Part shown: in pieces, positions 5,480 through 24,500 of the stretch | Layout: each line of letters opens with the position of its first letter | Numbering within the stretch: position 1 is the stretch's first letter | DNA from: Candidatus Parvarchaeota archaeon | Lineage (GTDB): Archaea; Nanobdellota; Nanobdellia; Parvarchaeales; Parvarchaeaceae | Assembly: GCA_023380435.1 (NCBI GenBank) | Contig: JAMCRB010000001.1 | Location: 1-31,445 of the forward strand | Length of the DNA stretch: 31,445 nucleotides | Direction of reading: 5' to 3' | Notes under the pieces: generated by a model | Seen by the model: only the letters and a program-made list of their open reading frames with translations | Database searches by the model: none | What the model was told of the DNA's origin: nothing | Program-made: the position numbers and the translations under genes

Positions 5480-5558
5480 GTCTTATTCTAAGCTAAGACG
5501 TCTATTTAAACTTTGCTGAATTAAGTTTTTAATTGGAAAACGTTTAGTATAAGTCATC

Positions 5559-5630
5559 GCCTCGGTGGCTCAGTGGTAGAGCGTTTCCTTGGTAAGGAAA
5601 AGGCCGCGAGTTCGATCCTCGCCCGAGGCT
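5559..5630 (+). tRNA. tRNA-Thr(GGU)
   Basis: GCCTCGG..GCTC-AGTGGTA-GAGC..TTTCC-TT GGT AA-GGAAA..GCGAG-TTCGATC-CTCGC-CCGAGGC-T; U73 discriminator. Confidence 0.97.
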
Positions 5631-5668
5631 AATTATAGCAGTAAGGGGCAACTTTGCTCTTTGATTGC

Positions 5669-5941
5669 TTAAACTATGTCCTCTTCCGCTACTACAACGA
5701 AGTCTCCGACGGATATAACGGCACCGTAAGGTATCTCATCGTTGTGATTATCGTCTTTTTCGAATTGGAAAGTGTTCGCATAGGATGTCGCCTGCTTTAT
5801 TGTCAGATAGACTAGTTCGCCTGTTCTGACTTCATATACTAAATCTGCTACAACACCCAGCTTTTTGCCGCTTTTTCCAACGACTGTTTTTCCTACTATG
5901 GATCTTGCATCGACCCTCTCTCCTTTGGTTATACCTGACAT
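5669..5941 (-). CDS. PRC-barrel domain protein
   Basis: IVGKTVVGKSGKKLGVVADLVYEVRTGELVYL ... IPYGAVISVGDFVVV is the archaeal single PRC-barrel pattern. Confidence 0.9.
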   Translation of the reverse strand: MSGITKGERVDARSIVGKTVVGKSGKKLGVVADLVYEVRTGELVYLTIKQATSYANTFQFEKDDNHNDEIPYGAVISVGDFVVVAEEDIV

Positions 5942-6005
5942 ATCAAAACCTCCTGGCCATCAAAAGACAGCTTATCATTATTATAGATTAAAGAAATGCA
6001 TCAAT

Positions 6006-6518
6006 TTAAAGCTTTTTTTCTTGGTCCCGCTTTATAAAAATGAAAAAAATGTCGTTACCTGCCTCTCCTTTTATTGAGGGATTTAAGTTGCTGTAGTCAA
6101 GGCCGGATTTCTTTAGGACTGAAACGGCAAGCTTTCCGCCTGGTTTGCAAAGTTCTAACATCTTGTCTATTGCTGCTGAACGCTCCTCTCCAGGCATGTC
6201 CTGCAGAACGGTTATTGAAAAAACTATATCGAACCGTCTGTCCGTATTAAAATCCGCGAATCTTTTCTTCTCTACGACGACGTTTTCAAGGTGCTTTTCC
6301 GTTATTCTATCCGCCAAATCAGACGGCTCCACAGCGGTTATGTGGAAGCCTTTTAGGGCCTCCTCAAGCAGTCCACTCCCTGCTCCAACATCCAGTATCA
6401 TGTCTGAAGGTTTTGGTTTGACCGCATCAACAAGCTTTTCAATCTTCTCTGTCTGTTCGTTGAGATATAACGCTTCGTAGCTGCCGGCTATCGCATTGTA
6501 ATAATCCAAAGAATCCAT
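6006..6518 (-). CDS. class I SAM-dependent methyltransferase
   Basis: ILDVGAGSG motif I, AVEPS, FDIVFSITVLQ, LCKPGG. Start re-called to MDSLDYY at 6518, where the ATG overlaps the proS stop (TGATG). Confidence 0.88.
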   Translation of the reverse strand: MDSLDYYNAIAGSYEALYLNEQTEKIEKLVDAVKPKPSDMILDVGAGSGLLEEALKGFHITAVEPSDLADRITEKHLENVVVEKKRFADFNTDRRFDIVFSITVLQDMPGEERSAAIDKMLELCKPGGKLAVSVLKKSGLDYSNLNPSIKGEAGNDIFFIFIKRDQEKKL

Positions 6519-16656: not shown

Positions 16657-16937
16657 ATGCGGTGTTGTATAGCCCGTTTTTTGTGATGCTTCCGCCTTTA
16701 GAAGGCTTCACAATCGCATCTTGCAACATTCGACTAAGCGCCGGAATACCGGTTTGCACGCCGCAGGTTTGCCGTTTCATCCCCTATTCCGCCTGTCTGT
16801 TTAACTTCATACATTGACGGGGTTGGGGTTCGTTTCTGATCAAGAGCCTACACTTTTAATGTACTGCATTACTGCAGTGCGGTTTTTGCCGTGAACGGAC
16901 TTCCTCCTTTTGTGGTGTGTTGCATGCAACACCGCAT
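16657..16937 (-). ncRNA. rnpB: RNase P RNA
   Basis: On the minus strand: P1 AUGCGGUGUUG/CAACACCGCAU, CR-I GAGGAAGUCCGUU pairing with CR-V AAAAAACGGGCUAUA (P4), CR-II AGAAAC, CR-III GAUGAAACGGC, GUGCAA, GCUUAGUCGAAUG, P2 UGCAAC/GUUGCA. Confidence 0.95.
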
Positions 16938-19746: not shown

Positions 19747-19821
19747 TGCCCCCGGCAGGATTTGAACCTGCGATATTCGGTTTAGGAAACCGACGTTCTG
19801 TCCAAGCTGAACTACGGGAGC
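19747..19821 (-). tRNA. tRNA-Arg(CCU)
   Basis: GCTCCCG..GTTC-AGCTTGGACA-GAAC..TCGGT-TT CCT AA-ACCGA..GCAGG-TTCAAAT-CCTGC-CGGGGGC-A; A20 identity element present. Confidence 0.96.
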
Positions 19822-19920: not shown

Positions 19921-19945
19921 AATACGACCGTGTAATCTGCTAAAC
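19921..19945. repeat. 3' arm of the pre-23S processing stem
   Basis: AATACGACCGTGTAATCTGCTAAAC is an inverted repeat of 22813-22836; two differences form G-U pairs in the transcript and one leaves a 1-nt bulge. Confidence 0.85.
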
Positions 19946-19949
19946 ATTT

Positions 19950-22812
19950 TTGGTTTATTAGTAATCGTACGCTGAAAATCTCGGCTTGCGCCTTGATCCT
20001 TACACGCCGATTCTATCAACGGGGTCTTCTTCCCCCGCCTATAACGATGCCTATTTTTGCGGAGGGTTTCAAGCTTAGATGCCTTCAGCTCTTATCCCTT
20101 GGCGCGTGGCTACGCGGCGTACCCTGTCGGATAGCCGCTAACTAGAGACGCCGACTCGCTGTTCCTTTCGTACTAGTCGAATCTTCCACTCAAGCATCGA
20201 ACACCCCCACTAGTTAACTCCCGGCCTGCCTCGCGGCGGCCTAAACTCAGCTCACGGTCCCCTTTAACCAGTGAACACCTGTACCCTTGGCTGCTTGTGC
20301 ACAACCAGGATGGGGAGAGCCAAAGACTGTGGAGCAAGCTGCGAAGTCAATATGAACTATCATCCGCAACAACTCTCTTACGCCCAGGGTAGCTTTTCTG
20401 TCATACGAAGGAGTCAAAAAAACACGCATTCGTGTTCGCTATGCCCGGCTTTCGCCTCTGTGCGCCTTGCATTGCAGCGCGCAGTCAAGCCATCTTTTGC
20501 CATTGCACTTAACGGTGGATTTCTATACCACTTAAGATGACCTTTGGGCTCCCATGTTACTTTTTCGTGGGATTGCCACCCCAGCAAAACTGCCCGTCTC
20601 CTGATGTCCCCGAAGGTAAGTGATATAAAACAACGGAAGTAGTATTACACTTTCGACTATCCTATCACCGGAATGATAGGCATGACGTCTCCTACTTACA
20701 CTATGTCCGTCGAATTATTACCACAACAAGAGATTGCAGTAAAGTTCCTGGGGTCTTTTTGACCCAGTGGAGGACTCTGGCCTTTGCACCAGAATGGTGG
20801 TTTCGCGGGTTTCCAGGTAGGGACAGCGGGAATCTCATTACATCGTTCACAAGCCAACAATCAATTGGCAATGTATTATGCTTGCTTAAGAAGGTCACAG
20901 TTACCTCCGCCGCTAATAGGTCCTTATGTCCGTTGAAACAAACTTTCGGATACCTATGCTGGGCAGATGTCGCCGACTGTACAAAAGATTGCTCTCTAGC
21001 AGTCAGCTATGCCTTTAGTAAACAGTTAGACTCCCTTAGTCACTGCGCCCTGATCTAGCTTTTAAGACCAAATCAGGGATCCCTTATCGCGAACTTACGG
21101 GACTAACTTGCCGATTTCCCTTACCCGGTTTAAATCCCTCGCCTTAGCCTTCTAAGCCAGCGCACCTGTCTCAGTTTTCGGTACGGTCACCTAGGTTCAT
21201 GACGCATGCATTTTTATGAGTCCTAAGAGTCTACAGATACATCGCTGCATTATGTATGCTTCTGCATCTTCTCGACATTATGTCTCTCGAACACATTTGC
21301 ACACATAGACGATCTGACTGGACCGCTCTGCATATCTCAAGACGTAACATACGATAAAACCTATGTGGTTGCGTGATATTAAACGCATTCCCATTTGCCT
21401 TGTACCTTTCGACACAAGACTTAGGACCGACTAACCCTTGTTAGATAAGCTTAAACAAGGAACCCTTGCGCTTGCGGCGGATGGGATTCTCACCCATTTC
21501 TTTGCTACTCCTGGCAGGATTCTCAATACCTCGCAGATCCATCGACCCTCACGAATCGACTTCTAGTCCGCGGGTACGCCCATCTACCATCATTTGATAT
21601 TACTCAAAAGATCGTGAGTATCGGCGGTTTACTTAGCCCCGTCCATTTTCGGGTTACAATATCTAGGTTGGTAAGTTGTAACACACTTTTTAAAGGATGG
21701 CCGCTTCTGAGCCCACCTCCCAACTGTTTTAGATATTGTTCCCCTTTTTTGCACTTAGTAAACACTTAAGGGCCTTAACTCACGGCTAGGTTTTTTCCTT
21801 CTTGGTGTGGAACTTTACGCCACACACCCAACTTACGCCTTATACTGTTTTGAAATTCTGAGTTTGAAAATGATGTGGGACCTTTCGGTCCCTATCAGCA
21901 TGATCAGTGTCTTTACCTTCAAAATAGCAGGACGTAAGCTATCCTATGGGATATTTCGATGGGAACCAGCTATCGCCGTGCACGATTGGTTTTTCGCTCC
22001 TATACGCATGTCGTCAGACAAGATAGTTCCCAACCTGTTCGGGCTTCCATGAAGAGTAATCCCCACTTCACCCTGCACACGTATAGATCGTACGGCTTCG
22101 GGTCTTACAAATATGACTAATGGCAGTTTCCTACCAGTGCCTTGCGGCAACTCGCTTTCGCTTCGGCTTCCAAATGTTAGCCTTGCCATACTCGTAAACT
22201 CCCTGCCCCTTTATGCTAAAAGGATGTTGCAACACTTGAGCTTGTTTATTTATTCGCAAGTTCACTACGCGCCGCAACAACTATAACTATTAGATTTCAG
22301 GTTCTATTTCACCCTCTCATCGAGAGTGCTTTTCAACTTTCGCTCGCGCTACTTTACTCTATCGGTTTCAGGTCGTATTTAGGGTTGGATGTTTTTGACA
22401 CCCATGTTCGCAGAAGAGTCTCGACCTCTGCTACTCTACGTGATGACAATCTTTCCAAAGAATACGAGGCTGTCACTCTCTTTGGCGCGACATTCCAGTC
22501 GACTTTTTCCCTTTCCGGACTGCCATTTACCACACCACATCTCTGCATTGCTGCAGATTCAGATTGCCCTGTTCCCTTTTCGTTCGCCATTACTAGGGGA
22601 ATCTTTATTAATTTCTTTTCCTGCAGGTACTAAAATGTTTTAATTCCCTGCGTTCCCTTTCCTCCCTTGCGGAAGGAATCCATGCTTACGCATGGGCATC
22701 ACGCATTCAGAAACGATACGATCAACAGTCGTCTGCACTTACCGTACCATTATCGCAACTTGCTGCGTCCTTCTTCAGCGCCTGAACCAAGTCATCCATC
22801 TAATAGCTTGGA
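19950..22812 (-). rRNA. rrl: 23S rRNA, stand-alone, no obvious intron; ends approximate
   Basis: Collinear landmarks on the minus strand: GAUGGAUGAC...GAAGAAGGACG (5'), GTPase centre, H69 GUAACU, AAGACCCC, P-loop CUGGGG, A-loop UGUUC, SRL AGUACGAAAGGAAC, GCAUCUAAG. Length ~2.86 kb. Confidence 0.97.
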
Positions 22813-22836
22813 GTTCGCAAATTACACGGTCGCATT
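22813..22836. repeat. 5' arm of the pre-23S processing stem
   Basis: GTTCGCAAATTACACGGTCGCATT pairs with the 19921-19945 arm. Confidence 0.85.
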
Positions 22837-22976: not shown

Positions 22977-24500
22977 TTAGCTGAAGATAGGTTCGGGGCT
23001 AGGGCGCAAATCATTGTTGTATTTGCTGTTTTCTTTTATTAAGTGCAATAAAATTTCACGTATATGCTCTCCACTCGTAGTTAAATTTCCGTTGTCTAAT
23101 ATTAGATTTTTATTCTTTAAATAGCCTTTAATCCAATTTGCTATTTTAGTTCTTTTCCCTAAGATGAATTCAGACATTGGTGAATCAGTTAATCTTTCAA
23201 TAAATTTATAACGTCTTTTTGGATAAAATTTAAATAAATCCATATATATGTAAGGCAGATTAGTTAGTATATCCCTAGAATAGACAAAAATAGACGGTCC
23301 ATTCGTATTTTTATTGGAAACCCAATAATTTAAACCAGTGACTTTCAATATTTTTTCCATTATACCTACCTCAGATTTACTAACTGCTAATCCTATCTCA
23401 CCCGAAGAACTTTTTGGCGCAACAAATCCATCTCCCTCCAAAAAACCCAATATAAAATCTAATGCATTTCTCTTACTATTCTTCTTTATTATCTCATTAT
23501 CTATGATATAATTAATAAGTTTTATATAGAAGGTATGAATTGAGGCGTTATGCTCACGCATAACCAGGCTCCCATATTTGAGATAATTGGGGGGTATTCT
23601 GTCACTTTTACTTGGTAAACGACTCACTTTACTAACAACTAAATCTGAATTATCATGCCAGTACCCTAACACCTCTTTATCCGTTATGTAATTTTTTACT
23701 GTTAGCCTAACATAACAGTCTATGTTTGGGTTATAAATGAGGCTATGGTGCATTTTGAAATAAAATTTAGCTTGTTCAGGACTCGAAGCATTAATTAACC
23801 ATTTATAACCTTTTTTTGCGCCATCGGCAAAATACGCGCCAAGGTAATAAATTATTTCATTGTTGAGTACGCCGTTTTCATATATGAAAGCGGGTTTTTT
23901 ATTTTTACCATAGAAAAACACAATTTTATCATTACCAAATTTAGCTAGATTAAGACCATTAAGGATGTCATCTAATGGGCTTGAAAGCTGCGGTATTTGA
24001 GCTGGATTTAATTTGAATACGGCCTCTTCTATTCCGTATTTGGTGGGCACATTTAAAATAAATTTGTTCTCTTTCGAGTTTTTTACAACTTTTGATATTA
24101 AGTTTTTAAAATATATTGTATCCCCCGTTAAACTATACGCACTTAAATAAACTATATCATCTCTTTTAAAATGTTCCTTAGAAACAAGCCGTTTTGGAAT
24201 TACAAGATTATGCTGTGTAACTTTTGAGTGAAACATATCATTTAGATAATTTATCTGAACTTTAAAATATTTTTTAAGATCAAAATCTTCAAGTAAGTCT
24301 TTACTTATAAGAACATAGGCTCCTTTTTTATGATTTTGTATAGACAATTTAGCAGGGTATAACTTATTAGATAAAGATATTATTATTTGGTTGCCTAATT
24401 TAAGTTCATTTTTATAGTCATTTATCTCTAAAAAATAATACCCATGTGAGCTATTCAAAAACCTTGCAGTATATGTTAGCCAATGACCATAAAACGGCAT
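22977..24500 (-). CDS. free-standing double-motif LAGLIDADG endonuclease-like protein with N-terminal extension
   Basis: Two LAGLIDADG helices: IIYYLGAYFADG and LDFILGFLEGDG. ~215-aa N-terminus including an AbrB-like stretch (LVIPKRLVSKEHFKRDDIVYL). About 28% GC by hand count of 23041-23400. Confidence 0.85.
   Translation of the reverse strand: MPFYGHWLTYTARFLNSSHGYYFLEINDYKNELKLGNQIIISLSNKLYPAKLSIQNHKKGAYVLISKDLLEDFDLKKYFKVQINYLNDMFHSKVTQHNLVIPKRLVSKEHFKRDDIVYLSAYSLTGDTIYFKNLISKVVKNSKENKFILNVPTKYGIEEAVFKLNPAQIPQLSSPLDDILNGLNLAKFGNDKIVFFYGKNKKPAFIYENGVLNNEIIYYLGAYFADGAKKGYKWLINASSPEQAKFYFKMHHSLIYNPNIDCYVRLTVKNYITDKEVLGYWHDNSDLVVSKVSRLPSKSDRIPPNYLKYGSLVMREHNASIHTFYIKLINYIIDNEIIKKNSKRNALDFILGFLEGDGFVAPKSSSGEIGLAVSKSEVGIMEKILKVTGLNYWVSNKNTNGPSIFVYSRDILTNLPYIYMDLFKFYPKRRYKFIERLTDSPMSEFILGKRTKIANWIKGYLKNKNLILDNGNLTTSGEHIREILLHLIKENSKYNNDLRPSPEPIFS

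Follow-up and report, generated by a model that had tools for sequence, protein, structure and literature searches.

Divergent peptidyl transferase centre sequences in the 23S rRNA of the archaeal order Parvarchaeales

The 31,445-nucleotide stretch of DNA analysed here (contig JAMCRB010000001.1 of assembly GCA_023380435.1, positions 1 to 31,445; hereafter the window) carries a 23S ribosomal RNA (rRNA) gene whose peptidyl transferase centre (PTC) departs from the canonical sequence at eleven positions where the Rfam consensus has an upper-case letter and E. coli the same base: 2447, 2448, 2452, 2497, 2500, 2501, 2503, 2504, 2505, 2507 and 2582 (E. coli numbering throughout). Coupled changes at 2055, 2572 and 2610 accompany these eleven. 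Sequence comparison places the window in a Candidatus Parvarchaeum species (the genus of ARMAN-4 and ARMAN-5; order Parvarchaeales, class Nanoarchaeia, DPANN). The order's 40 species genomes form one family of three genera; 18 of them have an assembled 23S gene, and the variant PTC set is present in 17 of those 18 genes and in all three genera. We consider it about 80% probable that this is a working 23S rRNA with a functional but remodelled active site, in which the first shell is unchanged and the second shell has been rebuilt.

Changed and kept positions of the 23S gene

The gene matches the archaeal large subunit (LSU) rRNA model RF02540 from model position 1 to 2987, with an Infernal score of 2260.7 bits (the gathering score is 50 bits) and with the consensus helices intact, and so is a complete member of that family. 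Over domain V the alignment has maximal posterior ('*') throughout and few non-canonical pairs; there the window has GGGCGUAAGAGAG where the RF02540 consensus has GGGGAUAACaGag, and CUCCACAGUCUUUGGCU where the consensus has cuACcUCGAUGUCgGcU. A MAFFT alignment with the E. coli reference rrlH (L017:260-3163) reproduces G2447C, A2448G, C2452G, A2497C, C2499A, U2500C, C2501A, A2503U, U2504C, G2505U, C2507U, G2582A, 2609G and 2610A. The gap-free numbering that a first-pass annotation had worked out by hand for 2433–2624 is exact in both alignments, window position being 22829 minus the E. coli number base for base (C2447 = 20382, U2505 = 20324, A2582 = 20247), and the hand-alignment error against which that annotation had warned is not present. 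For the strand 2057–2063 the offset is 22816 (G2061 = 20755). The gene and the parts of its PTC are as follows.

19938..22824, minus strand: complete gene for 23S (LSU) rRNA, single-copy in the assembly (RF02540, 2260.7 bits)
20753..20761, minus strand: PTC ring strand 2055–2063 (CAAAAAGAC); G2061, A2062 and C2063 kept
20579..20581, minus strand: P loop G2251–G2253, unchanged
20373..20382, minus strand: PTC ring strand 2447–2456 (CGUAAGAGAG); G2447C, A2448G and C2452G changed
20322..20333, minus strand: PTC ring strand 2496–2507 (UCCACAGUCUUU); A2497C, C2499A, U2500C, C2501A, A2503U, U2504C, G2505U and C2507U changed
20273..20277, minus strand: A loop U2552–C2556 (UGUUC), unchanged; G2553 is at 20276
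20257, minus strand: position 2572, C where 66 of 71 other Nanoarchaeia and the basal genus of the order have U
20241..20247, minus strand: PTC ring strand 2582–2588 (AGUUUAG); G2582A pairs with U2507, and G2583, U2584 and U2585 are kept
20218..20227, minus strand: A2602 (20227) and ring strand 2606–2611 (CGGGAG, 20223–20218); A2610 is complementary to U2505

The bases listed as kept by the first-pass annotation are all unchanged in the rrlH alignment and in the order-wide comparison. In the window they are G2061, A2062, C2063, A2450, A2451, U2506, G2583, U2585, A2602, G2251–2253 and U2552–C2556, and within the changed strands U2449, A2450, A2451, A2453 and G2454 (strand 2447–2456) and C2498, G2502 and U2506 (strand 2496–2507) also stand. 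The first shell, which includes all bases in contact with the substrates and comprises G2061, A2062, C2063, A2450, A2451, C2498, G2502 and U2506 together with G2583, U2584, U2585, A2602, G2251–2253 and G2553, is invariant in 17 of 17 Parvarchaeales, and the same bases are essentially invariant across class Nanoarchaeia.

The annotation's list of substitutions was reproduced in full, but its description of them as near-invariant positions was too strong for several that already vary within the class, here sampled as 71 23S sequences from Nanoarchaeia outside the order. G2455A, C2456G, G2495C and C2496U follow the normal archaeal consensus of RF02540 (2455-2496 is A-U in 42/71 and 2456-2495 G-C in 53/71 of the other Nanoarchaeia), C2499A is the majority state within the class, and 2609G is confined to this species, its relatives carrying U. 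Of its compensatory pairs, 2455-2496 and 2456-2495 are plain archaeal states, and the changes at 2067-2443 and 2593-2600 are common helix variants; the U-A pair at 2507-2582 stood. Position 2055 is C in the window where most of the class has A, and 2572, which adjoins 2504, changed from U to C together with U2504C. Three further features of the region may be mentioned: C2254, beside the P loop, reads U as it does in 22/71 other Nanoarchaeia; A2058 is bacterial-like (G in 40/71); and A2057 faces G2611 in most Parvarchaeum (window 20753–20761 and 20218), with A-U in some relatives.

Distribution, copy number and read support

The variant set is not confined to one assembly. Four metagenome contigs in addition to the 17 genomes carry the identical ring, one of them 637 kb long, and a 21-nt motif from the variant strand matches 15 named contigs of metagenome-assembled genomes, among them Ca. 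Parvarchaeum acidiphilum ARMAN-4, Ca. P. acidophilus ARMAN-5, Ca. Acidifodinimicrobium and 'Nanoarchaeota/Parvarchaeota' bins. GenBank holds public records of the scaffolds with the variant PTC in both ARMAN-4 and ARMAN-5, whose 23S sequences are identical to two sequences from the GTDB genus to which the window belongs; the records of Acidifodinimicrobium match the family's second genus. An exact match to the motif in a 'Caenarcanales bacterium' (L018:4744-4764) was rejected as chance, since the surrounding DNA is AT-rich and coding and has no further similarity to 23S; it came from a motif scan of 596 Gb, and scans of that kind yield such matches.

The first-pass annotation had argued against a pseudogene or a sequencing error and had named read support, copy number and expression as the points on which this turned; on each of them the data agree with it. 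No second LSU gene was found in the window's assembly (465 kb in 53 contigs, 76% complete), which gives a single RF02540 match, and each relative also has one 23S copy, including genomes that are 98–100% complete. The sole canonical 23S in any genome of the order (L034, at G048:C162:454-3357; 2861 bits), the one sequence that might have spoken for a second functional copy, was rejected as foreign because it branches outside all Nanoarchaeia; its 3.4-kb contig is one of 210 in an oversized Parvarchaeum bin of 1.7 Mb, and it is almost certainly a binning contaminant, possibly from a host or co-resident archaeon. Public sequencing data were compared over window 20100–20900 in four runs, two of DNA, each from a different study, and two of metatranscriptomes. 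No alternative letter occurs in any of them at 20322–20385, and the differences elsewhere in the compared interval, including those at 20218 and 20220 (positions 2611 and 2609), are of species level. Contigs from the RNA libraries span the PTC core at word depths of ~5,500–6,400, and one of 183 nt (20252–20434) is identical to the window. The 23S is thus very likely expressed, on RNA-library evidence that is strong if not formal. The runs that contain the sequence come from mine drainage, tailings and sediment.

Neither a canonical second copy native to the order nor absence from RNA with free decay was found, and the idea of a pseudogene, misassembly, chimera or misaligned sequence gained no support at any other point. 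It would have to accommodate a full-length Infernal alignment with intact helices, a variant ring in 17 independently assembled species and four metagenome contigs, agreement of independent DNA and RNA runs and an invariant first shell, and we regard it as extremely improbable.

No 16S or 5S gene was found within the window, so the 23S gene is unlinked from both. A tRNA-Arg(CCU) gene lies 116 nt downstream of it (19747–19821) and an RNase P RNA gene ~3 kb beyond that (16659–16935). Just upstream of the 23S 5' end is an open reading frame (22977–24500) read by the first-pass annotation as a free-standing LAGLIDADG protein.

Interaction units, the uL3 finger and the origin of the changes

Psi2504-C2452 and A2453-U2500 are pairs, and 2063-2450-2501 a triple, in solved ribosomes (bioRxiv 10.1101/2024.11.12.623245), and G2505-C2610 is a Watson-Crick pair in the E. 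coli and T. thermophilus structures. The contacts that the first-pass annotation had supposed between 2452 and 2504 and between 2505 and 2610 are thus real ones, and among related DPANN 23S sequences 2452:2504, 2505:2610 and 2507:2582 change as units, the first two stepwise through an intermediate genus. The pair 2507-2582, which closes helix 90, is C-G in 68/71 other Nanoarchaeia and U-A in all three Parvarchaeales genera; 2505:2610 is G:U or G:C in the class, U:U in the basal genus and U:A in the two derived genera; and 2452:2504 is of C:U type in the class, G:U in the basal genus and G:C in the derived genera. The triple 2063-2450-2501 goes from C-A-C to C-A-A in Parvarchaeales, and A2453-U2500 becomes A.C. 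In the Pyrobaculum calidifontis ribosome A2501 goes syn and forms a Hoogsteen pair with A2450 (bioRxiv 10.1101/2024.11.12.623245).

These states suggest how such a centre could work, with the caution that its three-dimensional pairings, like any phenotype, are read here from sequence. Peptide-bond chemistry would be normal by virtue of the unchanged first shell (P loop, A loop, A2451, U2506, G2583–U2585, A2602, the A2450-C2063 pair, G2061 and A2062). The second shell, which packs and positions the first-shell bases, would have been rebuilt by the replacement of whole interaction units: the closing pair of helix 90 (C2507-G2582 to U-A); G2505:C/U2610 (to U:A); the A-site cleft contact C2452:U2504 (to G:C) along with its buttresses, 2055 (A to C), 2572 (U to C) and the tip of protein uL3 (W to E); the C2063-A2450-C2501 triple (to C-A-A, as in P. 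calidifontis); and G2447/A2448 (to C/G) with U2500 (to C). The first shell would then be held by a second shell with new pairings and by a re-fitted uL3 finger. Epistasis would be required because, in E. coli cell-free ribosomes, C2452G alone is nearly dead (0.004 vs 1.03 uM/h) and C2501 is, with A2450 and C2063, among the least mutable ring positions (PMC7049736). Likely by-products would be insensitivity to drugs of the A-site cleft and PTC and altered nascent-chain sensing at 2503.

The uL3 component comes from a comparison of the protein of the window's genome (on contig C51, outside the window) and 23 genomes of the order with that of 30 other Nanoarchaeia. The tip of its W-finger is GxWHPA or GPWTPK in Nanoarchaeia with a canonical shell; Parvarchaeum and Acidifodinimicrobium share GAE[T/S]MA there and the basal genus has GTEGMS, so that tryptophan is replaced by glutamate; acidic tips are also found in neighbouring lineages with partial PTC changes (G057, G054 and G027/G064). 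We take yeast A2397, U2873 and A2872–U2875 to be the equivalents of E. coli 2055, U2504 and 2503–2506. Yeast uL3 W255 holds 25S A2397, which is stacked on U2873, and orders A2872–U2875, and at residue 255 only aromatic, basic or Cys residues are viable (PMC5331904). In Parvarchaeum and Acidifodinimicrobium this tryptophan, 2055, 2572 and 2503–2505 are all replaced together. The association of uL3 with the PTC is suggestive rather than statistical, because its cases are clustered on the tree. We note that another clade of the class, that of L145 (G028) and L153 (G065), has a basic tip (GSRGPG, GSRGMR) together with A2448G and an otherwise canonical shell. An altered release factor matching the changed PTC was also considered and rejected, as aRF1 has a normal GGQ.

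In a FastTree phylogeny of 23S from which the PTC columns had been removed, Parvarchaeales are monophyletic (support 1.0), and the basal genus (g15) is sister to the other two (g1 and g14; support 1.0). The order nests within a clade that has A2448G (support 0.94), and G2447C is shared with one neighbouring clade. The basal genus, which from the tree topology is probably Ca. Rehaiarchaeum (Rao et al. 2023), keeps A2503, U2504, U2572 and U2610. The most economical sequence of events would be A2448G and then G2447C before the order arose; a burst on the stem of the order comprising C2452G, A2497C, U2500C, C2501A, G2505U and C2507U/G2582A; and a second wave in the ancestor of Acidifodinimicrobium and Parvarchaeum (A2503U, U2504C, U2572C and U2610A), which would have turned wobble or mismatch intermediates into Watson-Crick pairs.

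The PTC ring, defined as the 43 nt of d'Aquino et al. 2020 (PMC7049736), differs from that of E. coli at 7 positions in a canonical archaeon, 6–17 in other Nanoarchaeia, 16 in the basal genus and 18–19 in Parvarchaeum and Acidifodinimicrobium. E. coli and the canonical archaeon agree at 36 of the ring positions, and at these other Nanoarchaeia have 1–10 changes and Parvarchaeales 10–13; the PTC shell is therefore plastic across the class, with Parvarchaeales at the extreme. Compared with the remainder of 23S, the ring shows a 4.6- to 12.7-fold enrichment in changes that lie at conserved positions and were fixed on the stem of the order (Fisher one-sided p 3e-3 to 1e-5, varying with the conservation threshold). 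Within the two derived genera the ring is 93–98% identical, against 83–89% for the whole 23S; since it arose, the new state has been held by purifying selection. Conserved positions outside the PTC also have clusters of order-fixed changes, at ~1000–1099, 1800–1999 and 2100–2199, with 11–13 changes per 100-nt bin against a typical 1–6; these clusters fall in the GTPase-associated centre (including A1095U), H68–H71 (including G1935A) and the L1-stalk region.

Several points weigh against a remodelled second shell of this form. Part of the apparent rewiring is a class-wide trait, since other Nanoarchaeia also differ at 1–10 of the 36 positions. All of the pairings are extrapolated from the geometry of E. 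coli, H. marismortui, P. calidifontis and yeast ribosomes, and an alternative register (G2452-C2500, A2453.A2499, G2454-C2498) fits equally; the covariation is compatible with both G2452-C2504 and the register-shifted G2452-C2500. The order of steps depends on L038, the one 23S of the basal genus, and on a single-gene FastTree phylogeny whose deeper nodes are weak (0.13–0.94). The uL3 association, clustered as it is, represents few independent events, and the RNA support consists of assembled contigs, which leaves transcription at very likely.

Why the state arose is a separate question, and one on which a structural account of a remodelled active site is compatible with adaptation. The whole class varies, and for this reason we slightly favour drift with compensation, to which we give a little under an even chance: slightly deleterious shell mutations would have been fixed in tiny-genome DPANN cells that depend on hosts and have small effective populations, then repaired by second-site changes and locked in with no new property selected. 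The continuum from 1–10 changes in other Nanoarchaeia to 10–13 in the order, the unpaired or wobble intermediates (U:U, G:U) later converted to U:A and G:C, and genomes that are mostly 0.4–0.9 Mb are all in keeping with it, but it leaves unexplained why the ring, usually the slowest-evolving part, outpaced the rest of 23S on one stem and why it has been frozen since. That stem-specific burst, with its 4.6- to 12.7-fold enrichment, keeps alive the possibility that the rebuild was selected for insensitivity to A-site-cleft or PTC inhibitors in an acid-mine or hot-spring community. The changed positions 2447, 2452, 2500, 2503, 2504 and 2505 are classic drug-pocket positions; G2447A, A2453C, U2500C and U2504C are listed as anisomycin, linezolid or chloramphenicol resistance changes (bioRxiv 10.1101/2024.11.12.623245), of which U2500C and U2504C are literally those of Parvarchaeales; and yeast uL3 W255C, lacking the tryptophan that Parvarchaeales uL3 also lacks, is anisomycin-resistant (PMC5331904). 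Selection of this kind is nevertheless rather unlikely, as no inhibitor, producer or phenotype is known for the habitat, a compensatory cascade after one slightly deleterious hit could enrich the ring equally, and the ring is plastic across the class in many habitats.

We think it improbable that the second wave was an adaptation to acid or temperature, in which pH- or temperature-sensitive non-Watson-Crick pairs were tuned (A2453-U2500 to A.C, or 2452:2504 to G-C) on passage from neutral-thermal to acidic-mesothermal habitats. Rao et al. do report thermal springs as the habitat of Rehaiarchaeum and cooler, acidic sites as that of the other two genera, and the split between the basal and derived genera coincides with A2503U, U2504C, U2572C and U2610A. 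Yet this is a single transition without replication in organisms whose cytoplasm is buffered, it depends on the identification of the basal genus from topology, and U2500C, which makes the A.C pair, predates the habitat shift, being already present in the basal genus.

Implications and comparison with known peptidyl transferase centres

The PTC is regarded as the most conserved catalytic site in biology, and its engineering has been blocked since most single changes kill E. coli ribosomes. Parvarchaeales keep about a dozen such changes, fixed and under selection, and the stepwise series from sister clades through the basal genus to Acidifodinimicrobium and Parvarchaeum, with the matching uL3 change, offers a map of tolerated combinations and their order. 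Tentatively, and with the odds somewhat against it, this may be the heaviest rewrite of the PTC shell in sampled cellular 23S rRNAs, with co-evolved RNA and protein; on that tentative view it would span 2452:2504, 2505:2610, 2507:2582, 2501, 2055, 2572 and the W-to-E change of uL3. Should a structure confirm a different A-site cleft around an unchanged core, it would be a natural, evolutionarily validated alternative design, the preserved intermediate of the basal genus would make an epistatic path through 'forbidden' PTC sequence space testable, and the ribosome would probably be intrinsically insensitive to A-site-cleft inhibitors. The finding also bears on conservation-based rRNA filters, on probe and primer design and on claims of 'universal' ribosomal nucleotides.

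Other Nanoarchaeia show similar shell variation (A2448G, G2447C, C2452U, A2453U/G, C2499N, U2500C, A2503U/C, U2504C), but C2452G, G2505U and the U2507-A2582 pair occur in none of the 71, one of which reads C2507:A2582, and at most 10 of the 36 ring positions are changed in them, against 12–13 here. One of them, G057 (L046, a single genome of family f19; also L132), has U2500C, C2501A, A2503U, C2452U, A2448G and an acidic uL3 tip, GPEGQA; it parallels the Parvarchaeales set in part and may be an independent route to C2501A. Family f17 (L095–L106, ~10 genomes) has instead fixed G2444A and G2445A, compensated by U at 2065/2066, and has the A loop GAGUUC, in which 2552 is A, and UCGUUA, which gives G2576U; we take U2552 to be universally methylated, and the position of G2576U to be one known from linezolid resistance. 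Insertions in domain V are present in the 23S of several others (L015/L016 of G025, L045, L047, L048 and L109), measuring ~500 nt at ~2444–2446 in G025 and ~80 nt near 2465 in a group near the G027 family, and are probably introns or expansion segments. The G2447C of G025 (L015) was not used, as bases 2447–2448 are possibly misaligned beside this insertion.

Laboratory PTC mutants (PMC7049736, and halophile mutants resistant to anisomycin, chloramphenicol or linezolid) involve the same positions 2447, 2452, 2500, 2501, 2503, 2504 and 2505; they are single changes and usually costly, whereas those of Parvarchaeales are combined, fixed and conserved across an order. The yeast uL3 mutant W255C (tcm1; Mailliot et al. 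2016, PMC5331904) likewise has lost the tryptophan at the tip of the W-finger, but it is a laboratory mutant whose A-site side is disordered, whereas Parvarchaeales have glutamate there along with changed 2055, 2504 and 2572.

The first-pass annotation had cautioned that divergent archaeal PTCs were already known, and rightly: Nissley et al. 2024 surveyed the 23S genes of GTDB archaea, described divergent PTCs in Thermoprotei and Methanomethylicia with changes at up to six positions within 2447–2453 and 2500–2504, and solved the P. calidifontis ribosome by cryo-electron microscopy, implicating the length of uL3 (bioRxiv 10.1101/2024.11.12.623245). Their text has no mention of DPANN, Nanoarchaeota or Parvarchaeota, and their pipeline discarded matches with at least 10% non-canonical helix pairs (same source). 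A description of the PTC of Parvarchaeota/ARMAN or DPANN was not found in the literature searched, though subscription-only papers may hold one. Parvarchaeales resemble the clades of Nissley et al. in having clade-wide substitutions at conserved shell positions (2447, 2448, 2452, 2500, 2501, 2503 and 2504) while the non-varying catalytic bases are kept; U2500C, C2501A and U2504C are common to both, uL3 near 2504/2572 is implicated in both, and in both the changed positions coincide with drug-resistance sites. They do not belong to the described clades, Thermoprotei and Methanomethylicia with G2447A, A2453C, U2500C, C2501A and U2504C, as they are DPANN Nanoarchaeia with C rather than A at 2447 and A2453 kept rather than changed to C, and they are known here from sequence where P. 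calidifontis is known from structure. Their 11–12 changes at conserved positions, against up to six published, reach 2497, 2505, 2507/2582, 2572 and 2610, and add to the published set C2452G, G2505U:A2610, U2507-A2582, A2497C, A2503U and a W-to-E uL3 tip. The Parvarchaeales PTC belongs with the naturally divergent archaeal active sites reported in 2024 as a new and more extreme example, and extends their range from hyperthermophilic Thermoproteota to DPANN.

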